Source: Phyllosticta citribraziliensis (taxonomy: Eukaryota). Taken from it: a DNA stretch of 64,000 nucleotides. Below the pieces are notes generated by a model. It worked only from the letters and a program-made list of their open reading frames with translations. It searched no databases and had not been told where the DNA came from. The stretch is taken from the NCBI RefSeq assembly GCF_038025025.1, contig NW_027117343.1, positions 1,922,001 to 1,986,000 on the forward strand, read 5' to 3'. Shown here piece by piece: positions 26,390 to 47,600 of this stretch. Every line of letters begins with the position of its first letter. Position 1 is the stretch's first letter. Position numbers and translations under genes: made by a program.

Positions 26390-26955
26390 ATGAGCCAGTC
26401 TGACTACCAACCGGCAGGACGGCGCCCAACGGTCGCTGCATGGAATCCGGACCGCGTCATCACAGTGCGTCGAAGCGAGCAGTGGAGTTCGGACCGTGGG
26501 AATCTCTGCGTAGACGGTGTGAAAATCTCGATTGCGGTGCAGGGCTGAAGGGGGTGCTCGATTGGGTGGGAAACTTTGCCGGACCTTGACATTTCACATG
26601 GATGATGCTGCTTATCTGCATGGCATGGCATGGCATGGATGGAGCGATGGACCTTTTGACCTTTTTTTTTTTTTTTTTTTTTTTTTTCCTCTCCACTGGA
26701 CGAGAGGCCTGGATCTTTCTACCATAGATTTCGGAGACTTGTGTTGCTTGCCACTGCATACAGCATCATGGGCGTAAATATACATACAGACCAGGAGAAA
26801 CACGTTGGCTTGTCAAAGGGTCCATGGCTGGTCGTGGTGCTACCCCGCCGTGGCAGCCCCACCATTGGCCCTCTGCAAAGAATTGGCCGGCTCAGGTCGT
26901 GACTGGACCGACACCTGGACTGCATTCCACCGCTACCACCAACCTGCACTGTACC

Positions 26956-27791
26956 ATGCTCGCCCGCGCTCCCGTCCGCCAGCTTACCACGTCGCTCACT
27001 CGCATCGCCCGTCCGCGATTGATCCTCACTCCCCTCCGCCAATTTACCACCACCAGAAACATGTCTGACATGCAGAAGGTCTTCACCAACAAAGCCACCG
27101 CCCGTAAGCACCCCTCGGCTTTGTCAACCGCGTCTAGCTCCCGTTGACTAACAATCTACCTCTAGCCGTCGGCCCCTATGTACGTTTGGCCTACATTTCC
27201 CACCCCAGCAGCGGCCATCGTCGCCGCACTAATCCACTGCCCAATCTCCTCCTACATCACCCCACCCGGTGAGGCCGTCGAGCTCCGGAGCTCGGTGTCG
27301 CCAGAGTCATCAACATCAGTCAACCATGCCGACGCGCCATGCCGCTCAATTGGGCATTCCTCGATGCGATTGGAGCTGACACACAACAGTCGCAGGCCGT
27401 CGTTGCTGGCGGGCAGGTGTACGTCTCGGGCCAGATGCCCGCCGACGCGCAGGGCAACCTGGTCGAGGGCACCATTGCGCAGAAGACGGAGGCCGCGTGC
27501 AAGAACATTGTTGCCATTCTGGAGGAGGCCGGCAGCGACATTTCGCGCGTCGTCAAGGTGCGCAACCCGCTCTCACATCTTTCCTTCGATTGTTGGCAGA
27601 TAAGTGGCTGACTCTCGATTGTGACCCAGGTCAACATCTTCCTCGACGACATGGCCCACTTTGGCGAGATGAACAGCGTCTACGAGAAGTTCTTTGCCCA
27701 CAAGCCCGCGCGCAGCTGCATCGCCGCCAAGGCGCTGCCCAAGGGCATCCCCCTTGAGATTGAGTGCATTGCCCTTGCGGGCAAGGCTTAA
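26956..27791 (+). CDS. RidA/YjgF/UK114 family enamine-imine deaminase (Mmf1/Hmf1-like), 4 exons
   Basis: Exons 26956-27103, 27166-27179, 27390-27557 and 27630-27791 give PVGPYSQAV, VSGQMP, VVKVNIFL, MNSVY, KPARSC and LEIECIA. Confidence 0.93.
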
Positions 27792-28385
27792 GGTTGTAAA
27801 CGCCAATCGGAGTCTTCTAGCAGCCACGTAGTCTTGCAGTCATCAATGACACTTGAAATGAATCATGTTCGAGCAATTGGTCCCATTGCAAACACCCATA
27901 ATTGAATCAAAGTGCCAATGCAGCGAAGTGAGCGTCTTGTTGTCTCGTCATCTCTCGCCGGGTAACTTTTTTCGGAAAGGGTCCCCGCGCTTCGGCGCCG
28001 ACCCACGCCAAGCCCATTTTCCGCTGACCGCCCGACCGCTGCTTGCGCGTGTTTAGACCACCACAGCTTTTGGAGCTTCGTCCAGCATCCCAACTCACAC
28101 GCTCCCTCCCCACCTGCGTCATTGACACAGCAAATCCACCGCGAAGCGCGTTTCGAGCACGTATCGACCTCGTCCGCCCACTACACGGCCGACTCTACTG
28201 CTGCGCTCACGACACCGACTTCCGTTCTTCGCACCGCAAACCCGCGAGCAAACAGCAGCCTCCTGCACAACCCACGACGACGACGACGACGACGACAACC
28301 GCTGCCGCCGCCGCCGCCGCCGCATAGCAAACGCTTACGCCTCTGCGCCACCCCTCTCATCTCCTCAACACACCGCCTGCCTAGC

Positions 28386-29048
28386 ATGGCCGCCGCCGAC
28401 GACACACAAATGGAGCTGGACCCAGCACCAGCATCGCCGTCGTCACCCTCGCGCAACAACGCCAAACACACAACACAACAACAAGGCGTGGTGGTGGAGG
28501 CGCGCACCAAGGACGGCAGCGCGGTCGCGGTGCGGTCGATCGAGGGCTGGATCATCATCGCGACCAATGTGCACGAGGAGGCCACCGAGGAGGACGTCAC
28601 GGACCTGTTTGGCGAGTTTGGCGAGATCAAGAACTTGCATTTGAATCTGGATCGTAGGACGGGCTATGTTAAGGTGGGTTCGGCCGCTTCCTCCCCACTT
28701 CCTGCTCCCTCCTCCTCCACCACCTACACCTCCCCCTCCATCATCTCATTTTGACTGGCTGTTTGCTCTTCACTCCCCACTGACCTCACTCCCCAGGGCT
28801 ACGTGCTAATCGAATACCCGACCGTCTCCGAAGCCCGCGCCGCCATCGAGGGCGCCGACGGCAAGAAGCTGCTCGACCAGACCATCGCCGTCGACTACGC
28901 GTTCGTGCGGCCGCCACCCAAGCAGGGCGGCGCCAGGGGCGGCCCGCGACGAGGCGGTGGCGGTGCAGGTGGAAGGGGCCGCAGTCGCAGTCCGGAGGAT
29001 AGGGCTAGGAGTCGTAGTCCCGAGGGTAGGGGTAGTGATGTGGAGTAG
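28386..29048 (+). CDS. RBM8A: Exon junction complex subunit Y14 / RNA-binding protein 8A, 2 exons
   Basis: [32 protein letters not shown], and an RG/RS tail. Intron 28674-28796. Confidence 0.96.
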
Positions 29049-29271
29049 TGTCGCGATGAATGGGGATGGGGGAGTGGGAGGGGGATGGAGGGGTTGGACT
29101 GCTGCGCTGAAATGGGCTTGGACGGATGAAGACAGGCATCCTACGATGCTGACTGTCTACAGCCAGTTTGTCAGGCAAGGCAGGGCAGGCGAGGCGAGAC
29201 AATGAACGAGATGACGGAGCCAGGCGCAAAAGACACAGACCGACCAAGGAGGCGCTTTCTGGATAGCTGAG

Positions 29272-29311
29272 GTACCTACGTACCTACCTACCTACCTACC
29301 TACCTACCTAT
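29272..29311. repeat. (TACC)n microsatellite
   Basis: Run of TACC units downstream of RBM8A. Confidence 0.9.
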
Positions 29312-29559
29312 ATGCGTAGGTACATGCATACACATACGTCACTGAATCACCGAACCAACACATCAACCTCCATGTCCTGCACTCCTGTCCATCCTATCAA
29401 CAGCCGACCAGCCAGCCGGCCAGAACACGGTGCCTCAATCGCTCGATGGCGATGCTGATGCTGTCGTTTGTGCAATGATGCTGACGATGAGGTTCATGGT
29501 GCCATGATACCATGGTGCTGAGTCTCCTGCCCAGTTCTTCGCGGCTTGTGTGTGGCGAG

Positions 29560-32500
29560 GAGAGACGGACGGAGGAAAAAGTGACAAAGGCGGTCAACCA
29601 TGCAGGCGGACGGACGGACAGACAGTAGATATTGACTGACTGTGTGGCACGAATGTCGACGCTGCCATCGCTGTGATGCTGGGTTTTCTGTGGGGGAGAG
29701 AAGGGGGGTTTTTATACCCGCGTCTGCAGCGGCTGAGCTAGGGGGTCAGGAGCTCAGATGTCAGAAGCAGATATCAGGAGGTCAGATTTCAGCGGTCGGA
29801 CAGCCATCAGTCCCGCTGTCTGCCTGCGCGTGTCCCGGTCAGTGCATATAAAACCTCACTCGTCCTCCACCGACAACCTTCCATCAACAACACTGGCGGC
29901 TTGCGTGCCATCCAGCTGCGACCCGGTGGTAAACTAAGCTTCGACTGTGTCGCTCCGTCGGCTTCGCGCCTGCGGGCACCGTCACTGTTCTTGTTCTTGT
30001 TGTTGTTTCTTTCTTTCTTTTCATTTCCTGCGGAGTCAGTCAGTCAGTCTGACATTCCCCGAAGAACTTCATCACGCCACGCTGCTCCTCCTCAGCAGCG
30101 TCGCGGGACGGTGGTGCTGTGTGTCGATACTTAATGGTGCAGCTCGTTGTCGTTGCTTTGCTGAGATTTGAGTTGGCCTCAGGGGGCGGAAATGGCGGAG
30201 CAAAACAAAACAAAACTGCCTCCAAAAGTACTTCATGCAGGCGTGGTTCTGCCAACACGGGCAGATAGACAGTCAAACACTCTGACTGGGTAAGCTGTCG
30301 AACTGTCGCTGGGTGCGTTGGTTGTTGAGCGGTGAAGTAGGGGGGGAGAGGGAGGGGTTTTTATACCCCAAGTCCCAGCCACAGGTTCCGATAGACCGGG
30401 CAGCGCAGCATGTGACAGATGCGATGCGGCGAGTGCTGTGTCGGCACCTGACTGCGGTGACTGTTTGACAGGTATAAAGATCGCCACCCTCCCCTGACGG
30501 TCTTGCAATGCCAGCGCTGGAGTCGACATACATGACGACCACCCCAGAGGACTGTACTTTGTGACGAGGAAGAGAACGCCACTGTGTCTGTTGTCTTTCC
30601 GTTCCTGCTCCGCCGCCGCTCGCCATGGACTCTAGAACTCTTTCTTCTAAGTCTCAGGCTCTCTGTGGCGTTTGCACGTCGTCCATCACGTCCGCTCGTT
30701 GCTGATTGCCGCCGTTTTGCTCCGATGACGCTGTGTAGCATCTTAATCTACTGCTTCTGCCTTACTCGCAAAAAGCGCGCTCAGACTCAAAGAGGAGTCT
30801 GCTCAAGCCAGACACACCACCTCCCCAGTCCGTCTTCTGGTTGAACTTTCTTCCGCCAGCTCCCAGTGTGCTTCTGCCCACCGTCGTTTTGAGAAGTAGA
30901 GTCGGCCACGATGTCGATGCGTTCCCGTCGAGTGGGAAGAGAGAGGCTTTTATAGCAGGAAGTCGAGTTTGGAGCGCGGACGGGCCAGCCCGCTTCTAGG
31001 ATGGAGGTGTGCAATTGGCTGCAGTGTTGAGCTTGTGCTGTCAGCACTTTGACTGCGGTGCGGGTATATAAGACCACCTCCTCTCCCTCTCAAAGTGCCA
31101 GGATAGCGGCGGTCGTCTTCCAGTGGCAAGGCGAGTTCTAAGACATACTGAAACTGCTTTTTTGCTCCTCTGGAGGCTCAACCTTCTCGCGACACTCTCT
31201 GTTTTGTTGTTCTTCTGTTCCGCTTCTTTGAGATAATGTTTTGGATTTAGGGGTTCTTCATCATCTTTGCACCTCACGCTCGTCATTGTTGTGCAGTGAT
31301 GTTGCTGTGCATCCACACCACAAACTACTCTTCTGCGCGCGACTCTTTGCCTCCACTTCCCAAACACCAGAAGTACATAGGGTTTGGTCTCTTGAGCGCA
31401 CCAAACAAGTCGGGTCCCAGTGTTTCAGGTGTCCACCACAGTTACAACCCGGTGGGCCGTACAGTGCTGCGCGTCGAAGCTGGAGCCGATGAGTCTTCGA
31501 AGCGAGGAATCGACGCCCCTTTTATACAGTCTACCTCTTGTGGGCTTCACATGTAGCAAGCCTAGTATACTATCCATGTGACAGCGGTGTCACAAGTGAC
31601 GGTGGCGACGCATGTGCCGCCGCCTCTTCGACCGCGGGTATAAAAGAAGCTGTTCTGCTCTCTTTGAGGAGCAGTGTCCATGAAGTCGAAGTCCTGGCGT
31701 GGGGATGGCAAGGTGACGACGGTGGGGAGTTTGACTCTTTTCGTTCGTCGTTCGTCGCTCCGCGGCCTGTGGGTTTTGATGTCACTTCAACGCCAAAGAT
31801 TCATACTTGTCTTGTGATGATTTTGAGCATCGCCATAGCATAATGCTCCGTCGTATCTTTGGTCTCAGATATCGTTCATCGCTGTATTGCTGAAGTTAGA
31901 AGAGTGTCGGGGAAGTGAGGACGCCTCGGCGAACCCGCCCAGTGAGAGAAGTCCCGAATTTTGCGCAGAGCCGGCGCAGCGACACAGTTGATGATTCCAG
32001 GATCTTCATAGTTGAACTGGAGGTGCATCGGTGATGAGCTGATAAGGAGGTGCTCCAGTGGTCTATTTACACTCGTTGTCCAGCTGGATTCAGGATCAAG
32101 TCTGCGGCGCGTGCGAGGGCAGTCAGATGCCAGCGATGCGTCAGTCACAAGGATCTCGGACTAAACTTAGGCAGCAGGGCCAGCGCTTAGCGGTCTGGCA
32201 TGTGCTAAACGTGATTCTGCGGTCTTTGTAGGTATAAAAAGGGATGTCTTCATTCTTCCCTCTTCTCCTCCACAGCGCAGCGGTCTTCTCTCCTCCATGC
32301 GACTTGGAGTGAAGTAGAGATCACAATGCCGTTCCCTCACTGTTTTTCTGTTTGTCTTTCTTTGCTTTGTCTCTTCTAATTTGTGTTGGGAGCTTTGAGG
32401 GTTTCCATTGATCAAACGGCGCGGAAGATGTTGCGCGTCATTGTCAAGTCCTCGTAAGGTCTTTCGCCGCTTTTGGGGGCTGTTGATGCGATGAACGCAG

Positions 32501-35500
32501 ATTCCGATGTCCGGAAACTCTCGATCCCTCCCGAAAAAAAAGAAAGTCGAGGAAACGCAAGAAACACGGCCGACAAAGTCAACGAAATCTGTCATCTTTG
32601 TTCAGTTTAACCTGTGTTCCCATCAGGATTGTGTCGATAGAGCTCAAACTCTGGGCAGAGCCGGTCGCGTTTTATAGAACAGCGAACATGGGGGCGAAGT
32701 AGGTGAGAGTCAGGGGTTCAGGGGTCAGGCGACAATTTCGTCACCTGTCTTTCACAAGCCGCTGGGCTGTTCGAGTAGCTGAAGGCATGTGTTAAACCTA
32801 GCTTTCATGTGCTTGTTGGGTATATAAACACTCAATCTGTCCGCTTGCTTGTTTGCTTCTTCAACACTGTCGTCGCTAAGCTGGATGAGCAATGAGCACG
32901 CAAAGATGATACTGCGACCATATTATCCCCTTATGGCCACTCTTTCTTCTCTTTGTCCCTTCTTGGAATTCCCGCCCGCTGGTTAGCGCAGACCTCCTTC
33001 GGATCAGATCAGGGCTCTATCTCGCCGCTCGGCACGATCAAGAGATTACGACTTCCACCACTCCTAATGAATATTGCTGCTTTCCATCCCTCGAGTATAA
33101 TGAGACTCTGGAGCTTTCCGCTTAATCCAAAGGCTGAAAATTCCAGGGCACGGCCACCGCGAACACAGTGTTCATTTTGCCGAAGTCCTCCAACCAAATG
33201 CAACTCTTCACTGTCAACTTCCTGCGTAGACATGGTTGCGCAATTGGCAGTTTGCAGTGGAGATACACTTACTTTTATAGACGAAACACCGACGAGCGAC
33301 TTCTGGAAGCGCGTCACGAGTTCACGTTCCGAACTGCCCCAGTGCGCGGTCAGGGGTTCAGGATTTAGGAGTCAGCTGACGGAATCAACCGCGCCGCGCC
33401 AGATGATTCCCTTTTTTTTTTTTTTTTAAGTATAAAAGCACATTGTCCTCCCTGCCACTGTATAGAGCCTTGGAAACGCCAGGCAGAGGATTTACGTATA
33501 CTGGTCCGGCTTTGCGTTGCTTTTCGGCCAACGAGTCAGTCTCTTCATGTTCGGTACTTGTGTTTTGCTCTTGGTGTCCATCTGCTCAACTGTTCATGGC
33601 TTTCAGTCTTGTTGTCAATTCTTGTTGGTGGTGGTCGTCATCGACAACTCCAACTGCTCAACATCGCCCCCACAAAATGTCGCTGCAGATTCCATATTTT
33701 GCGGGGGAAGGCCAAATAGGCAAAACATTGATAAGCCTCCAAGACGCAAGACCAAGTAGCAGCTAGAGGTGGATTGAACAATTATACATCCGAAAAGTGA
33801 CGCATGGGCTGGGGTTTCCGCAACGCGACACAGGCCAGGAGCTGCGGCGGATGTTGGACAGATCAGGAATAACTGACAAGGCTTTATATCCAGGACGGCT
33901 GGAGCCACATGCAAAATGTAGCCCCGTCACAAGCGCTGAACTGATCAAGGGCGATTTGTGGCGGAGTCAGGGGTCAGGGGGAACATGTCATGCGGCAAGC
34001 AAACCCCATCGGCGACTCCGCGGCTACATTTCAGCAGTCTTCGTCAGCTCTGCTCAACAATACATTTTCTCTCTTGCTTCTTTGCGGGGAGACAGGACAA
34101 GCGAAAATTTTGTCCAGTTACTTTTGTCGTTTCTCGGGGCGGCGAAGGCATCGCAATCGCCTTGCTTTTTCTCAGCGGTCATTTCCATCACTTCAAACTC
34201 ATCATGAGTACATCGACTCATATGTCTTCATCTTGGCGCCATGCCGAAGTTCTGCGCTGTCTCCGAGTCGTGCACAGCCAGTGTTGAGAATTTCGCCTCC
34301 TACCCCTAAAAAGCGCAAGCAAGCCAAAGAGAAGGAAAGGTGCGTATCGATGTAACCGGAATTTACTCCCACAGTTTCCCACATGCTGTTGAGTATTCCT
34401 TCGCTGAGGGAGGCGGGTGAGTAGAGGAGGTTGAAGTGATGCAGCAAAGCCAGCGAAGCGGAGTTTTTATACCTGCGCGAAACGCTCAGGGCAAGGCGAA
34501 TCACATGCGGCGATTGATCATGATAGCGATGCCGCTGAATGGCCGTCAGGCGGCGGGAGCCGTGCTTACGCCTCTTTCTGCGAGTATAAAATGCCCCAAT
34601 CGCTCGATTTCCACTCAGTCTTCAACCAGGCATTCCGGTCTCACAAAGTCGCAACAACATAGCGTCACGGCTTGTCGCTCTGTGCCCTTTTATTTGGTCA
34701 CCTGAAACTTCAAGAACACAAGACTTTTGTTTCTCATTCCCCTACCTCCTACCCTTATGCAGCTCACACTCTTCTCGATCCCGCCATCCGCTTCTTACTC
34801 ATTCACCATTAACACTTAACGTTTGTCGACGACATTCCATCCTGGCGCTGCCATTCACCGGGAGCATTCAAACACCAACCCCAGAGAATCCCTGGAAACA
34901 TGCAAAATCAACTCCGCAGGAAACAAAAAGAACAAAGTCAGATCGTTGTAGGCGGTTTGCCGCAAAGACACAGGCGGCGCCAGTGGGTCGTCGAAGTTTG
35001 TGCTCCGCAACTTGCTCGTTGAAGTGACTTGGTGTTCAGAATGCGGCGGAAGTAGAGCGCTTTTATAGCTGCCGGCAGAGCATCCTCGCGCATGCAGTCA
35101 CAGGCAGCAGGCTGCAGCCTGTGGTGACGCATCACGAGCATTCGATCGAGGTCAGGCGCGAGGAAATGCGGCGCTCGTGCCCTCCGCCGCGAGTATTTCA
35201 GCATTGCTTTTCACCTCTCGAATCAATCCATTCCAAGCCGCGTTCCGGACTTCGAGGGATACACCACTCAACGACCGTAACACTGGCTTGCGGCTCCAGA
35301 ACACACATGTAGCAGACTTGGCTTTTCTTTTGTCTTTTCTGTTCAGTTTTCCACTCCCCATGTCTATCCAAGCTCCTGTTCCGTTTCTATTGTTGATGAG
35401 GTGCGTCAACATCGCCACATCTCGTCGAAAATCATTCTGAGCGAATCATGCCGAGATTCTGTCGACGTGGACGTTTTGACATCTACCCGCTCACCCACCG

Positions 35501-36450
35501 CGCAAAAGGCAAGTCATTAGCCATGGTGGCGGATGCTCCCACACAACCCGTCCTTCTTTCGGCATGCATCTGCAGAGCTCTGGGAGCGATGCGGATTGAC
35601 CTGGTTCATCGGCTGCAAACAGCAGGTCTCTTATACCACCCCAGCAGCGGCGATAGCATGTGCCAGCCACGAGTAACATGCTGCCAGCAGTTGCTGCACG
35701 TCAGGGGCACATGTCCTTCGCCTCCTCTCAGCATGTGGCTTTCGAATCCACGGCAGTATAAAAGCCGCATCCTCCTCTTGCTTGGATGACTACAACAAAC
35801 CGCGCAAAGGGCGCTGAGGAAGGTACTCTACGAAGATAGACACTTTGGCAAGCGGCTGCGAATGAGAACTACACTTTTCTGTCCTGTCATGTCCGCGGCA
35901 CGCACCTCATCCTTCCGCAACCCAGCCACCAGCGCAAAACCAGCGACTCGCCATTGCTCTCCCATGCCGTCAAGCACCACTCTTCCATCTTCTTTGTTGA
36001 ACGCGGTCACCACGCGCAACCCCACCCTACCATGTCTGCCATCCGCCATCCACCAAGCGCAAAAACAAGTGGATATTCAGCGATCAAACCTGCGCGGCAA
36101 ACAGTGCACTCTCCTCAGTCCTGACCTCTCCAGCTCCGGATCCAGCACAGTCAAAGCTTGATCCGCGCGAGTTCTTCAAGCGCCGGGAGAAAAGCTTGTG
36201 GAAAGAAGATGGACAACGGGGTCTTAAGGGCGTCTTAAATACTACTGTTCATCGGTGCGGTGAGCCGCGCGGCACATGCTTATCACAAACAAGACTAGAT
36301 TACCCATGCGCAATTGGCACGGGGACGCGAATCCAGACATTGGTGATTTGCATGTGGGACCGCTGGCTGGCTGCGTATATAAGCTCCCTGCTCTCCTCCT
36401 CGCTACGAAGGCAGACAGCAGAACGCAACAGAGCCGACGCAAAAGATGGC
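29560..36450. promoter_or_regulatory. Phased array of 12 divergent TATA-box pairs with ~595-bp period, probably non-coding
   Basis: Minus-strand TATA boxes start at 29716, 30365, 30954, 31526, (32071), 32676, 33279, 33888, 34471, 35067, 35635 and 36241. Plus-strand boxes start at 29847, 30473, 31065, 31639, 32233, 32821, 33431, (34025), 34585, (35194), 35757 and 36376. Brackets mark degenerate sites. No credible protein gene in the interval. Confidence 0.8.
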
Positions 36451-36782
36451 AACGAGAAAAAGGGAACTTTGGCGTGGGCGGAAAATGACGCGATCGATTA
36501 CTTCCCGGTTTGCTTGGGAGGTGAAGACCTTTACTGCGGTGCTCGTGTCGTGTGGCAGTCCTCAGGTAGAGAAATTCAGCGGATGCTGCTTAGCAGCATC
36601 GTCATCAAAACAATCTGAGCACCACCATTTTGGACTGGCAGTGCACCACATCATCGTCGCTGATAGCGTGGAGTAAGGGGGCGGGCTTGACGTACACGAG
36701 GTGCCTGCTCTGGAACAGGGAATTGAGGGGAAAGAAAAGACAAGACAATGGTCCGAGTTTGTTTGAATCCACACAGACAGCT

Positions 36783-36826
36783 TCCGTCCAACGCCATGCT
36801 GTTATCCGTCCAACGCCATGCTGTTA
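36783..36826. repeat. Perfect 22-bp tandem duplication
   Basis: TCCGTCCAACGCCATGCTGTTA at 36783-36804 and 36805-36826. Confidence 0.95.
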
Positions 36827-37213
36827 TTCTTTCCCTGGTTTCAGGGCTGGAGGAATGCCACGAGAGGCTCCACCATCGAAGACAGAAGCGGAGGCGCCTC
36901 GTATGCAACCCAAACTCAACAGGCTTTGTCCGGCCCCGAAAATGGAGTAAGTGACGTCCAGTCTGTTCGGATAAGCCTCTCCCGTCTCTCAGCCAAGTTT
37001 TGAACGTCCAGCTAGGACCGATACATTTGCCGTTGTCTGACAGAACACGATTCGTCCATTCTCGGTGCCCTCACGAATCCATTCGAAGCCCACCTCAAGA
37101 TCTTAAATCCGTCCAAAACATAAACCGGTTCCCCTTTGATCAATTTATGACCCAAAAAGCGAAAGGAAACAGACTGTATGCATAAAGAGAGCCAAATCAA
37201 TTGTTTCGAAGCA

Positions 37214-40200
37214 TCAGGCATCCGTGACGACCCGACTGCTCCCCTGAGATGCCGACGCCTCTTCGTGCTCTGTGGGTTTGTCTTCCAGCATTCGCTGTTG
37301 TGTCGGTGCAGTCGGCCAGAGGTTGAAAGGGTTCCAGGCGCTAAGCATCTTCGCCAGAGGGCTCTGTTGCGGAGTCGTGGGTGCCGGGGAGTCAGTGGTG
37401 GCCCGTGGGGTTGGTCTAGATTCTTCGCCCGGGTCTGAGAGGGTTCTGGAACTCAGGCTGGCTCGCTCTCTTCTTTTTTGTTCCAGCACGGGGAGAATTT
37501 TGGTCGTTTGAGATGGGAGCGTACTCCGAACTACTTCGTCGATCGTCTTCGGGTCTCCTGGCAGGTGAAAAGAGAAGCCAGGATCTTGTCGCTGTAAGAC
37601 AAGATACGGATCTGCGCCAGCAATGAGCAGCATAGTAGTAATGTCTCCAATGACGACGCTGTCTATCCAAACGTACGGACTGGCTGAGTGGCATCGGAGC
37701 TAGCAGTATTGATCAGGATCACCGATTTGGGGGATGAAAGGCTAGGAGTCTGACGAGAAAAACTTACTTCGTTGAGGAACATCTCCCACAATGTCAACGC
37801 CATACCAGGCACAGTTTCGTTGACGTCTGCTTGATGTCTCAGAACCTCAACTACTAACATGCGGTAGTCTATTCTTGTCTCAGGGCCAAAGCAATGTAGC
37901 AAAGTACACATTAAGACGCTGAAACTGGCCTTACTCTGGACGTGGCGACCTTGGAGCTTTTCCAAGACGTACCAATCCAAAGCGAATAGGGAGGCCACGT
38001 CAAGGATATCAGCTGCTTTGAAAAGGCGACAGGGAATCGATACTAAGTTACTCCAGTGTTGATCCTGTTGAACTCGCTGAGTCAGTACTCAACTGGTCTG
38101 GTCTGTTTTACACAAGGGTTTGCATCTCACCTGGGCTGAAATATGCGACGACATGGAACTTGAGAATAGATGGTCAACCTCGTCGATTAGCCGCGTCAAT
38201 GGCCGAGCCCATTGTTCCTCATAGCTCCGAGCAGGACGAAGTACTGAGTCCAATGATCCATCAAGATACTTCATCGTGTTCTTATCCTCGCTCCTCAACA
38301 GCCTTGGGAGGTCCAAGCACTTTAATACCATCAAAGAACCTTTGGCATTGACCAAGTTGGCATCAAATATGCCGCCGAGCTCTTTTTCGAGATACTCAGG
38401 CATTACTTCGTCCAAAAGGTAATCTCTGACTGTGCGGTGCAAGAATTCCACCCGATATACTGATACTTCAGCGCCTTCGATGAGGTCTTTCTCAGTAACG
38501 TGGAGAAAATCTTTGCATCGTGCGTTGATGCGCTTTTCCAGGCTGTTCTTCCAATCATCTATCTCAGATCTTGAGACTTGATGGAAGGTATTTCTGAAGA
38601 CGTACTCTGGATCATCCTCTTTGTCCAATACTTGAAAAGTCGCAAGTGTAGGGGGAGTTTCCGACTTTAAGCATATTTTCAGCATCCGCGCCGTATCCCT
38701 GCGATGTTCGCGCCTGATGGATTTGTAAATGCGATCAAAGAGTGCTTCCAGCTCAGTCGGGTAACTGTTGACCTTCGTCCACAGATCTTTGAAATTCGCC
38801 CCTTCAGCTGGCGCGCTCAGGAGCATTCGGACTACGAGGAACACCCATAGAAATACCCCTGAAGAGTTCTGTACAATATGATCTGTCATTTCATCGAACA
38901 TGGTACCCATTAAGGCCATGAGATCCGGGCTTTCGGCGATTGTGTCCCTGGTAAACTTTCGAATGTCGTCTTCGGTTAGCTCGTGGACTCGGCATTTGGT
39001 GCTGGTGTGAAAAGCGTGCTCGAATTTTTCCCACGGCCGGCTTGACACGCAAAGCTTGACTGAGGGCACATCCTCAAATCTCTTGAGAAGCCCGGTGATT
39101 TCATCCTGAGTACAGTCGTACTCGTCGAGCCCGTCGATGAAAAGACATATTTTCGGTCTTTCAGTTTCATCCACGATTTTACACAATGCGGCTTCCAGCA
39201 TTTTGGGTGAAATATTTCCTAGTTCCCGCTCGTCGCGATCCAGCCAAAGTCGTGGGAAAATTTTGGGAATCAGGACTGGGTGTTGCCGTAAGATCTGAAA
39301 GACAGTGGAGCGGAGAAATCCTTCACGAGAGCGCTGCATGCTGGACCCAGATGTCCAAAAGTAGTGGCTCGCGACGGCGATCTTCTGGTCTCCAGCCCAC
39401 GATTCCAAAAGTCGAATGGTCTCGTTATGGTCCATGATGAATTTCATCAGTGTGGACTTGCCGCTCCCGGGCTTTCCACTTATCCAGTAAATGCCGCTAT
39501 GATGCTCAAGCCAGTCAGGGAATCCACGCTTTTCATTGTCGAATATCCATTGGAAAGTGCATTTGTGAGCTACGCTGACGTTGTTGTATCGATCCATGTG
39601 TTCCAAATACTGTAAGCGTTTCAGGATTTGCAACGCCTTGTCCGCCTCCTGCTCTTCCTTCGTAAACTTGATAAACAAGTCTGCGATCCTACTATAGTCA
39701 ATGGATTTTGCGTTGATACTTTCGATAATTCGGTCTCCTGTTGACGACAGCTGCTTGGAAGTGTCTGCTTGCAGGGTTCTGTCCATTTGCGCGACTTCAT
39801 CGAGCTTCGTCATCAAATACGAATTGTCGCCCCTGTTTTGTATTAGTTGTGTCTCCAATAGGGCGATCGAGGAGCCACGTACTTGACCATTGATATCAGT
39901 CTCGAGTCGAGTGCTTTTTGCAACCTCTGGAGTCTTTCATGAATCTCGAGTATCGCTCTCTTTCTTCGTCTTGCGCGGAAGGTCGACCTGACAACTTGCC
40001 TTCTTCGATGTGTCGTATCTTCGGGGAGAACTAGAGCTCGTAGCTCCGTTTCCAGGCTCTCCGCAACTTCGTCGTAAAGGTTGGAGATTTGCAATACGTC
40101 TTCCTCTTCCTCGGTGTGACTTGTTTTCGACGACAGCCTCGTTTTGAGCAACGTTTGCTGTTTGCGCATATCGTGGACAATCTGGCCGATGTCAGATATG

Positions 40201-44698: not shown

Positions 44699-47600
44699 GG
44701 TGTCTAGCAATAGAATAAAACCAACGTAGAGAAAGGACAAAGCTGAATTGGGAGAGTAGCCAAGGTAAGAGAAGAGTGAAGCGACGGTAGGTACAGCGCA
44801 AGAGGAGCGGGGTAGCAAGATTTATTCGCCATGATGCCCAAGTGACGACGGTCGGGTGGTCTTGCTAGCGTGACGTAACCGGCCGTAGGGCTGACTGCAT
44901 GGGTGCGGTGGTCAAGCTCACGCCTCCCGCTCGACCCGCGACCGCGCTAACTGCTTTCGGCTATGCGATCTCCACTTGGGGGCGACACAACGTTAGCAGC
45001 GTTCCCGCGGTAAACTCTGAAGAGAAATGTCAGCTGAGATGATCCCGGTTGAAGTCGACGAAGCGAAAGTGCTTCATTTTTGAAGAGGAAGTGGAGTGAA
45101 GTAGCCAAGAAGATTTGACACGGTCTTCTCAGAGGACCAAGTGACGGGAAGTGATCATCTCCTGAACAACACCATTCGCATGAGCAGCTCCTCGCACTTC
45201 ATGGCGCCTTGCACCGAACACCCAGAATCAGAACCAGCGCATCGCACGGAACAGCGGGTGCAACCCAAACCGCAAATGGTCGCCGAGTCATCAACAGCAC
45301 GGCGCAGCAGACCGATATAAAACCCCCCAGACTCTCCTCCGCCAACTCTTTCTTCTTCATTCCCGGTTTTAGCGCATCACGGAAGGGGTCCCTGATGATG
45401 CCCTCCCCCATTCACCGCCCCCGCCCCAGCGTCCCTGCGCCTCGTTTTGTTTTCCAATCCACCGGCCCTTTTTATGCACCTGCACCTTTTTCCGGGGACC
45501 CGATATAATGCGTACCCTTTTCTGCTTACTCTTCTTTGCTTCGGCTTCCATTGGCTGGCTGCTTTTGGTGGCCTTGTCTGCGCTTTTTTGATCTCAATGG
45601 TGTCGCCCGCGTAGCACTACTGCGGGATGGCGCATCCTACTTTTTTTTCTCACTGTGGCTTTCGCCTTGTGCGGGTCCTCGGAGAGAATTGATGACGGGC
45701 TGCCCATTGAAGTTTGAGCGAAGCCCGCATGCACGTTAGATGCGTAGCTGAGCCTGACAATTTCTGACCGCGAGGTTCCGTCAACCCATTCGACGCAGCT
45801 GGCTCTGAACACGGCGGTCAGAACTTGCCTGATGCGTCAAAACATGGAAAGGCCGGCACAGCTGGGATATTGGGCGGCGTCTTGGAGTCTTTGACGAGCA
45901 AGGCATCACTGGCCAGCTTTCACGGGCGCGAGGTTCCAAAGATCGTACAGTGAGGTAGCTGGTTGCGCTCACGACAGGCTTCGAAAACCCGGTCTATGGA
46001 GACACACCGAGATTCCAAAGACGCTGAGATGCCTGCCGACTTGCCCTTCTCGGAGCGGAGCAGGATAGAGTAGTGCAAATGCCGGACCCTTCGCTGCAGC
46101 TCACAGCAAAAGCGTCCTCGCCCATCTCCACACCCACCGCGCCTCCTACAGCCTTGATTCAAACCTCTCACTCTCACTGCTGGCCATCCAGGTCTTTCCC
46201 CAAGCGCCCGCATCAAGCGAACGACTCAATGAAAGAAAAAAGGCAATGTTCGCGTCAGCCCCCAGTAGTGCTACGGGAGCGACACAGTGACGGCCACGCA
46301 TGGGCAAGCCCAGTGGCGCAGCGCGTCGCGCGGCAAAAAGTGGGTTAACCAAGAAGAAGGCCGTAGCCTTGGTTCAGTGGTTAAACTGAACAGAACAGGT
46401 ACTACACATGATCTGGCCGAGCACGTTAGCAAGCGGAGGGAGGTAGGGTGGAGGAGGAGGGCGTCGTACCTAAGCCAAAAGGCAGAGAGCTGGAGAGGAA
46501 AAGAAGAGGAGAGGAGTTGGGCGGGCTGGCAGGAGGTTTTTATAGAGGCGTTGGTGGGTGTGGTCTGTGCGGCGGGCGCTGGTAGACTGCGAAGGCGGTT
46601 AGTCGATGCCGCTGGGCAGCGCCTGTTGGCGGGCTTGCGGCAGGCAAGCACCCGTACGGTACGGAGGCGTTGTAGCAGAATCGCTTCGACGTGGCGGGAA
46701 ACCGATGGGCGGATTCAAAGCGTCGCCTCATGCTATCATGAAGCTCAACCACAGCACCCAAACGAAGCGAAAACAGCGAATGTCAAGGAAACAGCAGGTC
46801 GTATCTTCCCTCTACGCTGAGCAAGCACAGATCAATGGCTCCAGCCTGAAGTGGTGAATGAAAGGTCCCCTTGTCCAGCAGCGGCGTCAGAGCTTGCTCT
46901 TTGTTTCGACACGCACCGCACGAGTAGCTTCGAGAGAGCACAGGGCAAAAACAATCGACCAGCAAGCAGAGATATACGTCGAAGAAGAAAGAGAAGAAAG
47001 GCAAAGACAACTGGTCAAACAAACCCTCGGAAAGAAACATACCCATCCAAGTTTGGAGACTTGTTGTTGACGCTCAGACCAGGAATCCTCTGCATGCAGC
47101 CTCCAGCAAGATGCCGGTATGCCACTGGCATTCTACGGGCGCAGACAGCCAGCCTCCTCGTCCAAGCTCACTTACAGATTCCTACAACAAGCAACATCAT
47201 GGTGCTCAGTAGTCCCGCACAGTAGCTAGGTAAGCAGCCGCCATCTTCGACGAACCCGTGGACCCTCCTCAGACCTGCTCCGCGACCCATCTCGAGCCGA
47301 CCTGCCAGTCCTGATGCGCAGGCTGTACAGCTGTCAATCTCCGCGCCATCCAATGAAACAGAACGGTAGACGTCGAAGAAGAGCAGAGAGGAAGGAAGGT
47401 CGAAAGGGGAAAGAAGAAAAAAATTGTCGTCCGTGGAATGAAATGATCCCCTCTTGCACATCAAACGCGCGCAACGCACGACTCATGCCCAGACCCTCTC
47501 GTCAGGGATCGAAGATCGCACACCAGAAGCCTTCCTCCAGTCGTTCGCCGAGCGGGCGCGGTACCTGCGCTGGTGGTCGTGGTGGTGTCTCGGAAAATCA

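Follow-up and report, generated by a model that had tools for sequence, protein, structure and literature searches.

Strand-specific T-rich tracts in a gene-less array of back-to-back TATA modules and their possible role in ending convergent transcripts

The array and its tracts

The window, that is, the whole stretch of Phyllosticta citribraziliensis DNA analyzed here (64,000 nucleotides), contains an array of 12 back-to-back TATA modules with boxes on both strands (Table 1), in which the facing promoters of one pair are 465 bp apart. When 21 arms were compared, no consistent ORF, start position, or peptide was detected. The similarities common to the arms are the TATA box, a motif near -30, and a T-rich tract on the sense strand; nothing else is shared, and within the transcribed parts the tract is the sole common element. 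Therefore, the tract is the best handle on the function of the array. No tRNA was found in the window, and an Rfam search, a check suggested by the sequence-only reading (an earlier inspection of the bare sequence), matched no family in 29300-36700 at E up to 1. At the gathering score, the single Rfam match in the window was U2, outside the array. Directly 3' of the U2 snRNA gene lies a T-rich stretch, on the same strand as the gene.

Literature searches produced no paper on gene-less rows of facing TATA promoters, which seem not to have been described previously. We also analyzed 80 metagenome loci encoding relatives of the neighboring RRM protein, and at most one distinct back-to-back TATA pair per locus was found; one of these loci has three overlapping TATA pairs around a single plus box. 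The gene order at these loci differs from that of the array neighborhood. None of these RRM relatives is close, since identity across the entire exon does not exceed 66%, and the metagenome comparison is therefore silent on conservation in close relatives.

To describe the tract as an aggregate signal, a sense-strand metaplot was anchored on 21 TATA boxes (11 plus and 10 minus); the addition of three arms with degenerate boxes (32069-, 34027+, and 36241-) gave the 24-arm set used below. For the 21 anchors, the T fraction in the 10-nt bins from +110 to +169 was 0.33, 0.32, 0.43, 0.41, 0.33, and 0.35, with a sense-strand peak of 0.41-0.43 at +130..+150, where A was down to 0.10. The bins flanking +110..+169 had T of about 0.14-0.30, and a mirror A-rich zone appeared at +300..+320. 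Over +110..+170, T was 0.363 versus 0.215 +/- 0.016 at random anchors outside the array, and none of 5000 random anchor sets reached 0.363; the window background is 0.22. A phase scan had its maximum at an offset of 0..+10, and for 19 of the 21 arms, the 30-nt window richest in T within +40..+420 began between +84 and +155 (binomial P about 1e-11). Thus, the T/A skew that the sequence-only reading had expected around the TATA boxes is present. The nine plus-strand tracts named in that reading are T-rich (T 0.44-0.72 and A 0.00-0.11, at +108..+179 from the nearest plus TATA), and its five mirror tracts are A-rich (A 0.53-0.71, at +111..+165 from the nearest minus TATA).

With regard to single arms, the tract score reaches the 90th percentile of random 170-nt windows in 14 of the 24, the 95th percentile in 9, and the median in 23, and the sense-strand score exceeds the antisense score in 19 of 24. 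The signal is thus strong when the arms are pooled, while several units carry it weakly or not at all, as had been remarked from the sequence.

The tract is opened sharply by an AC/T boundary (the slash marks the boundary) in 15 of 24 arms, compared with 4.3% elsewhere, at a distance of 95-173 bp from the TATA box. A content is 0.01 in the first 10 nt of the tract and 0.05 in the following 10. No T-containing 3- to 5-mer, including TTTGT, CTTTG, UCUUG, and UUUGU, was found above mononucleotide shuffles of the tracts. TTTGT, which the sequence-only reading had described as frequent, does occur in five of the nine T tracts, and its complement in three of the five A tracts, but without enrichment beyond composition. 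The longest T run per tract is 2-8 nt; of 22 tracts, 17 hold a run of four or more T, 7 a run of five or more, and 1 a run of six or more. The gap between the two tracts of a facing pair is 207 +/- 18 bp, a spacing tighter than that of randomly dealt offsets (mean SD 35.9; 156 of 20,000 deals as tight), in a test that may be flattered because some boundary positions were picked among candidates.

Table 1. Coordinates of the array, its TATA boxes, the mapped RNA, and the tract of each arm
Feature	Position	Strand	Score	Remarks
Array of 12 back-to-back TATA modules	29716..36382	both		spacing ~590 bp
Minus boxes	29716, 30365, 30954, 31526, 32069 (degenerate), 32676, 33279, 33888, 34471, 35067, 35635, 36241 (degenerate)	-
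Plus boxes	29847, 30475, 31065, 31639, 32233, 32821, 33431, 34027 (degenerate), 34585, 35194 (degenerate), 35757, 36376	+
Polyadenylated non-coding RNA, 294 nt	34709..35002	-		5' end 35002; poly(A) addition 34709-34711 (X2 record 9)
Weak tract, TATA 29716	29576..29588	-	5.2	AC/T at 29581/29580
Tract, TATA 29847	29986..30026	+	20.4	>99th percentile of random windows; CAC/T
Tract, TATA 30365	30202..30227	-	10.8	core 30202-30215; AC/T at 30228/30227
Tract, TATA 30475	30583..30603	+	6.6	CAC/T
Weak tract, TATA 30954	30770..30796	-	5.0
Tract, TATA 31065	31196..31229	+	13.2	CAC/T
Weak tract, TATA 31526	31362..31372	-	4.6	TAC/T
Tract, TATA 31639	31736..31752	+	5.8	GAC/T
Almost absent tract, degenerate box 32069	31945..31950	-	2.8
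Tract, TATA 32233	32341..32387	+	18.6	CAC/T; RNA 5' end 32284, 57 nt upstream
Tract, TATA 32676	32534..32587	-	12.8	contains run of 8 T
Tract, TATA 32821	32941..32964	+	9.6	CAC/T
Nearly absent tract, TATA 33279	33137..33140	-	4.0
Tract, TATA 33431	33558..33577	+	7.2	TAC/T
Weak tract, TATA 33888	33714..33755	-	4.6	AC/T at 33756/33755
Tract, degenerate box (anchor 34027)	34108..34134	+	6.6	internal TAC/T; absent from the sequence-only reading
Tract, TATA 34471	34308..34338	-	10.2	without AC boundary
Tract, TATA 34585	34725..34734	+	6.8	GAC/T
Tract, TATA 35067	34921..34936	-	11.2	GAC/T; crossed by mapped RNA
Tract, degenerate box 35194	35318..35350	+	14.0	GAC/T
Weak tract, TATA 35635	35504..35512	-	4.2	GAC/T
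Tract, TATA 35757	35875..35887	+	5.0	CAC/T
Tract, degenerate box 36241	36061..36068	-	6.4	CAC/T; absent from the sequence-only reading
Weak tract, last arm (TATA 36376)	36509..36515	+	3.8

RNA contigs across the array

Contigs of two public runs, X1 and X2, were aligned to the array. Both runs are taken as RNA because their contigs are spliced (the genes on either side of the array show five joints of the GT..AG or CT..AC type), none of the listed runs being recorded as RNA. X1 covers 30 of 30 bins of 26500-38499, parts of the array outside X2 cover were left uninterpreted, and contig word depths were not used for expression ranking. No splice joint was detected inside the array in either run. 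Contigs span the pair centers, and 5' ends of both strands were observed, in different units.

A single RNA has both ends mapped. X2 record 9 carries eight non-templated T before 34709 and adapter after 35002, and thus delimits the 294-nt RNA of Table 1, which starts 65 nt downstream of the minus TATA box 35067, crosses its own tract, and ends 13-15 nt past the boundary of the partner tract (34724/34725). On the minus strand, this partner tract forms an A-rich element: the RNA bears AAUGAGAAACAAAAG at -29..-13 of the mapped poly(A) site, followed by a U-rich stretch just before the cut. This site, the sole one mapped, comes from an assembled contig and not from reads. An alternative 3' end of the same RNA was detected in X1 at 34577, 132 nt further on; therefore, the 3'-end signal is not fully efficient. 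The word depth of the 294-nt contig, which is not an expression measure, is of the same order as that of the neighboring RRM gene. A plus-strand X1 contig of 539 nt (31683-32221) also crosses its own tract, and it belongs to the unit with the weakest partner tract (31945..31950).

Two further 5' ends are marked by adapter: 30290 on the minus strand, 75 nt past the matching-strand TATA box, and 32284 on the plus strand, 51 nt past it. The three mapped ends precede the tract boundary by 63, 57, and 66 nt (30290, 32284, and 35002, respectively; 19 replaces 63 if the other boundary candidate is chosen). Since the 5' ends lie upstream of the tract, the tract is internal to the RNAs. Overall, the distance from the TATA box to the RNA 5' end is 44-75 nt.

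Folding of the predicted transcripts, another check put forward from the sequence, gave no signal: z was +1.24 versus shuffles for the 294-nt RNA, and z averaged close to zero across 22 arms (5' domain, 0.03; 3' domain, 0.13; entire arm, 0.08).

Candidate functions of the tract

The sequence-only reading regarded the tract as a terminator or 3'-processing signal of its own arm. A tie to RNA 3'-end formation is supported at 34709, but at the tract of the partner instead of the RNA's own. Because the 294-nt RNA reads through its own tract and ends after that of its partner, service to the opposite transcript appears the likeliest role, and we tentatively propose, with somewhat less than even confidence, that each tract gives a strand-specific poly(A) signal to the transcript converging from the other strand and is not a terminator of its own arm.

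According to this proposal, each TATA box would start an RNA about 45-75 nt downstream, which would then pass through its own U-rich, almost A-free tract. Being of this composition, the tract is unlike a fungal poly(A) signal, and its low A content would let its own RNA pass, while the other strand would read pure A/C/G. The RNA would next traverse the ~200-bp center and reach the partner tract as a 20-40-nt A-rich element, with cleavage and polyadenylation ~15 nt further, about 45-50 nt short of the start site of the partner. Polyadenylation just past each partner tract would thus let the two tracts set the ends of two ~290-nt RNAs, which would be complementary over most of their length, and would keep each RNA out of the facing promoter. 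The A-rich reading would be what causes the cleavage, and the remaining units would presumably behave alike.

In favor of this proposal, the transcript of 14 of 24 arms meets its first A-rich window (20 nt holding 10 or more A) at +196..+342, where the partner tract lies; windows of this type make up 1.8% of the rest of the 64,000 nucleotides. Against it, in five arms such a window occurs already at +51..+100, and in another five there is none at all. Ten of the 24 tracts fail to exceed the 90th percentile of random windows. The U-rich element at -10..0, with cleavage at a C/A step, is present at 34709 and is not general, as sense-strand A, which the other strand reads as U, is 0.27 in the 10 nt that precede the boundary.

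If the tract is a poly(A) signal that works in one direction, it accounts for two promoters being able to face each other over 465 bp and both fire while neither invades the other. Moreover, the overlap length of the RNAs would be fixed, and the idea of dsRNA or small RNA would become directly testable. A further step, which we consider rather unlikely, is that the facing pairs are dsRNA cassettes in which the tracts act as one-way gates and two ~290-nt poly(A)+ RNAs are complementary over a fixed ~210-235 nt of unique sequence, forming an undescribed fungal system that makes defined dsRNAs or small RNAs or exploits convergent transcription. If true, such a system would use a type of terminator that passes one strand and stops the other.

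The tract could instead act early on its own strand, with Pol II or an Nrd1-Nab3-like factor reading a U/G-rich, A-free stretch ~60 nt into the RNA; the products would be 60-110 nt long, with read-through giving rise to the long poly(A)+ RNAs. The strand-specific tract lies at a near-constant distance from the three mapped 5' ends (57, 63 or 19, and 66 nt), its sharp AC/T boundary suggests recognition of one strand, and the T-rich stretch right after the U2 snRNA 3' end makes an own-strand role conceivable. RNAs of 60-110 nt would also escape standard RNA libraries. The sequence-only reading had likewise expected RNAs of ~80-120 nt ending at the tract; the mapped RNA is 294 nt long and crosses it, in libraries that are blind under about 120 nt. 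Within the same limit (RNAs under ~120 nt are invisible), each of the two traceable RNAs passes through its own tract, which in one case is strong (score 11.2). Furthermore, UCUUG and UUUGU are not above composition, and an A-rich element is missing upstream of the boundary, so that the tract does not qualify as a Neurospora-type poly(A) site on the sense strand. Taken with these points, an own-strand terminator appears doubtful.

It is similarly doubtful that the tracts act at the DNA level, as nucleosome-disfavoring linkers or sites for a DNA-binding factor that fix a particle on the ~207-bp center and phase the 590-bp unit. The inter-tract spacing is indeed more constant than the TATA-to-tract offsets predict, the order on one strand is T tract, center, and A tract, and termination zones in yeast are described as nucleosome-depleted in the accessible part of 10.1101/2022.11.02.514956. 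However, the tracts are mixed T/G/C and not homopolymers, with few long T runs (see above), and a property of the duplex needs neither strict exclusion of A from one strand nor a one-sided AC boundary. A poly(dA:dT) nucleosome-excluding tract in the strict sense was rejected, as it needs a long, near-pure homopolymer and the longest T run here is only 2-8.

We consider it very improbable that the tract is a site for an Sm/Lsm-type protein on the sense RNA, each arm being a small snRNA-like gene. The U2 snRNA has ACUUUUUG at its Sm-site position, which resembles the AC/U-rich-G opening of several tracts, and the TATA box with a CT-rich block resembles the U2 promoter; nevertheless, an Sm site is a single-stranded A-U(4-6)-G between stable stem-loops, whereas AC-U(3-5)-G fits just 4-5 of 22 tracts by eye and the flanks (n=22) have no fold signal; the arms also have no Rfam match at E up to 1 and no other shared sequence.

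The boundary could also mark a second start site, of the initiator type, from which a pyrimidine-rich leader would follow. According to the accessible part of PMC4046813, tight starts in Aspergillus nidulans have C at -1 and A at +1, then C, and remain pyrimidine-rich to at least +25, and the boundary ([C/G/T]AC and then T-rich) is of this kind. However, G precedes AC in 8 of 21 arms, as against G at -1 in 0.8% of the A. nidulans tight starts; TATA is 30-45 bp upstream of the starts in that species (PMC4046813, same part), versus 95-173 bp before the boundary here; and the boundary comes 57-66 nt after the mapped 5' ends (19 nt in the one arm with an alternative candidate). Such a start site is therefore highly improbable.

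Pol III termination needs a run of at least 5-6 T, and a Pol III TATA box lies about 30 bp ahead of the start. It is exceedingly improbable that the tract is an oligo-T terminator of this kind, since runs of at least 5 occur in just 7 of 22 tracts (at least 4 in 17) and the mapped RNA is a polyadenylated one of 294 nt, with RNA starts located 44-75 nt from TATA, or that the U and A tracts of read-through RNA pair, an idea of the sequence-only reading whose 9-nt complement (34725-34733 with 34920-34928) is real, but cognate pairs (-13.0 kcal/mol) are no better than non-cognate ones (-12.4 kcal/mol, P 0.44) and the tracts are unpaired in the predicted fold of the 294-nt RNA.

Comparison with known systems

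The early termination of short non-coding Pol II transcripts by Nrd1-Nab3-Sen1 in budding yeast (accessible part of PMC3875857) resembles the array in that an element of the sense-strand RNA lies near the start of short non-coding transcripts. The array differs from it in having no motif beyond composition and in that the RNAs followed here read through. Outside budding yeasts, this pathway is not known to operate in such a manner.

For the proposed convergent poly(A) signal, the closest likeness is to the poly(A) sites of Neurospora 3'UTRs, which, in the part of PMC5869017 available to us, have an A-rich region at -30..-10, a U-rich region at -10..0, and degenerate hexamers, AAUGAA being the commonest. 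The mapped site at 34709 shares the A-rich region and the U before the cut, and the setting is also alike, namely a GC-rich genome in which AT-rich patches are rare (PMC5869017, same part). In contrast, the array element extends over 20-45 nt, has almost none of the complementary base, is bounded by the conserved AC/T, and sits at a fixed distance from the facing promoter; it recurs in up to 24 arms, to which no gene belongs. U is found in the most frequent Neurospora hexamers (PMC5869017, same part), whereas the antisense reading of the array tract is nearly U-free. The published poly(A) model assigns no function to the conserved AC/T boundary.

In convergent yeast genes, transcripts end in a shared short zone with overlapping 3' ends, and termination protects the neighbors (accessible parts of 10.1101/2022.11.02.514956 and PMC3875857); bidirectional terminators of yeast are also treated in PMC5499651. 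Termination in the array would likewise protect neighboring units. The yeast zone is ~120 bp long, centered on a palindrome-like UAUAUA, and works both ways (same parts of 10.1101/2022.11.02.514956 and PMC3875857), whereas the array has a pair of distinct tracts, separated by 207 bp and working in one direction, each of which apparently lets one strand through and stops the other. A yeast-type bidirectional zone was rejected on account of these two one-sided tracts, which are 207 +/- 18 bp apart and A-free on one strand. If the tract is a one-directional poly(A) signal, it would offer a natural case of strand-selective termination, unlike the yeast terminators, which are bidirectional.

Finally, the disiRNA loci of Neurospora, as described in the accessible part of PMC3764098, also have overlapping sense and antisense transcription in a filamentous ascomycete; those loci are ordinary genes with antisense transcripts, whereas the array consists of gene-less TATA pairs with punctuation elements.

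Position and composition of the T tract

The window is eukaryotic and looks filamentous-ascomycete-like, with a GC content of 50-66%, a U2 snRNA gene and, in the genes flanking the TATA array, short GT..AG introns of 66-286 nt (from RNA contigs). Among the strict-TATA-pattern matches in the 64 kb, 9 of 13 on the plus strand and 8 of 9 on the minus strand fall in 29.7-36.4 kb, where the crowded boxes form 12 back-to-back modules at a spacing of ~590 bp. Each module has a minus-strand box and then, 110-164 bp on, a plus-strand box, so that neighbouring modules face each other with ~465 bp between them. The array is bordered on the left by a plus-strand RRM-protein gene with its 3' end towards the array, and on the right by a minus-strand gene whose 3' side is also towards it.

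An earlier sequence-only reading had described T-rich and mirror A-rich intervals at a set distance from these boxes. All 14 intervals are as claimed on re-checking, and a T/A metaplot over 21 TATA anchors bears out a positional skew: on the sense strand, a pyrimidine block at +10..+30 is followed by a T maximum (0.43 and 0.41) at +130..+150, where A is as low as 0.10, and by a mirror A-rich zone at +300..+320. Over +110..+170, T is 0.363, compared with 0.215 (SD 0.016) for random anchors outside the array, and none of 5000 random sets reached the observed value. The signal is maximal at the true phase in a phase scan, and the most T-rich 30-nt window begins at +84..+155 in 19 of the 21 arms (an arm being the stretch downstream of one TATA box). 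Three arms with degenerate boxes bring the set to 24; of their tracts, 14 lie above the 90th percentile of random windows and nine above the 95th, and the sense strand beats the antisense strand in 19 arms. The tract signal is real, strand-specific and positional, and is clear singly in only ~60% of arms.

Under an unbiased tract definition, AC directly precedes the first tract T in 15 of 24 arms, versus 19 of 440 T-rich segments elsewhere in the window (P ~3e-15); this AC follows a C or a G in 16 of 21 arms. A strict version of the boundary motif has 14 occurrences within the array (7.2 kb) and 12 in the remaining 56.8 kb. Counted from the boundary, T is 0.64 and A 0.01 over nt 1-10, and T is 0.41, G 0.33 and A 0.05 over nt 11-20. 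The composition profile of the arms contains no A-rich zone upstream of the boundary, and TTTGT-like words are no more frequent than in shuffled tracts. The tract is a composition rather than a word. All-versus-all comparison of the 24 arms reveals similarity only at the TATA box, at a spot near -30 and at +120..+150, and the tract is the sole element common to the transcribed parts of the arms. In facing pairs, the boundaries lie 207 +/- 18 bp apart (n = 10), which is tighter than independent placement from the own TATA box (mean SD 35.9; matched by 156 of 20000 random deals), some boundaries in this test being picked by the analyst among candidates.

Ends of RNAs from the array

The region is present in two coded public sequencing runs, X1 and X2, which were used as assembled contigs. 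In each of them, contigs from the flanking genes are spliced, at five GT..AG or CT..AC joints, which identifies both runs as RNA. X1 covers 30 of 30 bins of 26500-38499, and X2 covers the array in part. A contig end running into the sequencing adapter marks a place where many fragments end. The strand reading rests on the usual adapter sequences and stranded-library orientation, and is internally consistent, since it fits the poly(A) contig as well as the plus-strand RRM gene at its 3' end.

Mapped ends in the array, with the U2 snRNA gene for comparison
Feature	Position	Strand	Remark
RNA 5' end	35002	minus	65 nt downstream of same-strand TATA
RNA 5' end	30290	minus	75 nt downstream of same-strand TATA
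RNA 5' end	32284	plus	51 nt downstream of same-strand TATA
Plain contig end	31683		44 nt downstream of plus box 31639
U2 snRNA gene	46244-46544	minus	TATA at 46544, start near 46492

The U2 start, ~50 nt downstream of its TATA box and preceded by a CT-rich block, is at a distance comparable to those of the array 5' ends. In Aspergillus nidulans, start sites lie 30-45 bp downstream of TATA, according to PMC4046813. The tract boundary follows the 5' ends at 35002, 30290 and 32284 by 66, 63 and 57 nt, respectively (an alternative boundary candidate in the 30365 arm would make the second distance 19 nt), and the tract is therefore internal to these RNAs.

Record 9 of X2 consists of eight non-templated T, 34709-35002 and adapter, and represents a 294-nt polyadenylated minus-strand RNA. 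It traverses its own strong tract and has its 3' end 13-15 nt past the boundary of the partner tract, i.e. that of the facing arm. On this RNA, the partner tract reads as an A-rich element at -29..-13, then U-rich to the cut, a layout described for Neurospora 3'UTR sites in PMC5869017. X1 provides a second, adapter-marked 3' end for the same RNA at 34577, 8 nt beyond a plus-strand TATA. One unit has almost no partner tract, and there the plus-strand contig is 539 nt long and extends to 32221.

The end at 32221 is 12 nt upstream of the next plus TATA (32233), and a comparable end near 29838, estimated from bin depths only, is ~9 nt upstream of box 29847; polymerase halting at an occupied promoter could account for both. 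A plain contig end of X2 at 36343 is 33 nt beyond a plus-strand TATA box entered from its downstream side. Ahead of both ends (34577, 36343), a minus-strand RNA reads the plus TATA as UUUUAUAC or UUAUAUAC, resembling the yeast efficiency element, and a TATA box met in reverse may serve as a fallback terminator.

Candidate roles of the tract

Our preferred explanation, held tentatively, is that the tract may be a strand-selective 3'-end signal serving the opposite, convergent RNA. Read from the other strand, it would form the A-rich part of the convergent transcript's poly(A) signal, and the near-absence of A on its own strand would allow its own transcript through. Such a signal would explain why the tract is asymmetric between strands, why RNAs run through their own tract, where the mapped poly(A) site lies, why the spacing within facing pairs is so even, and why the RNA is longer in the unit that lacks a partner tract; this explanation is based on a single mapped poly(A) site and leaves the conserved AC-then-T boundary unexplained. 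The sequence-only reading had proposed the tracts as a possible terminator or 3'-processing signal at which RNAs of ~80-120 nt may end; it is supported in part, in its link to RNA 3' ends, but the mapped RNA reads through its own tract and stops past the partner's.

An early terminator acting on the tract's own strand is conceivable given the T-rich stretch immediately 3' of the U2 gene and would yield short RNAs, of a size such libraries would not show, yet we consider it unlikely. The pair spacing suggests a chromatin or DNA-factor role, which also seems rather doubtful. That the tract is an Sm-like protein site, as the U2 Sm position in this organism (ACUUUUUG) might encourage one to think, is very improbable, since the fold signal is absent and the tracts fit poorly. 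An initiator-type start at the boundary is scarcely credible because G precedes AC in 8 of 21 arms and the mapped 5' ends disagree. Pairing of U and A tracts, as the earlier reading also proposed, or a Pol III terminator has next to no probability.

As a 3'-end signal for the convergent RNA, the tract would act similarly to a fungal poly(A) signal set between units that converge, a situation known from the bidirectional terminators of yeast. It differs from the latter in being apparently one-directional, present in two mirrored copies with 207 bp between them, sharply bounded, and attached to gene-less promoters in arrays. No published account of such arrays or such a tract was found in the literature searched. 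The 3'-end-signal reading lends these puzzling arrays a testable logic.

Module polarity and minor features

The motif TCAC[AG]AG occurs in six of the 12 modules (31590-35132), each time on the plus strand (6 of 14 matches window-wide), and the mean T-tract score is ~9.8 in plus arms versus ~6.8 in minus arms; the back-to-back modules are therefore polar rather than symmetric. Both TATA-less plus boxes have the identical nine letters ATTTCAGCA (34028-34036 and 35195-35203), which points to mutual copies or an alternative element rather than two independent decays. Left of the array, 29431-29447, with no TATA box, matches 34592-34608, directly downstream of plus TATA 34585, at 16 of 17 nt, and, judging from this similarity, is possibly a decayed extra promoter arm at the array edge. 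A (TACC)n microsatellite (29273-29312) adjoins the array on the left, and a 16-T run (33413-33428) lies immediately upstream of plus TATA 33431.

The U2 gene has an apparent 57-nt GT..AG intron (46469-46413) with a CTAAC branch site, placed directly after the branch-point-binding sequence, and its Rfam alignment begins only within this intron. Beside the gene, 45316-45540 on the plus strand carries a strong TATA with a CT-rich block, CTGATGATG at ~+75 and then several T-rich patches, and could represent a short gene or a small RNA that lacks annotation.
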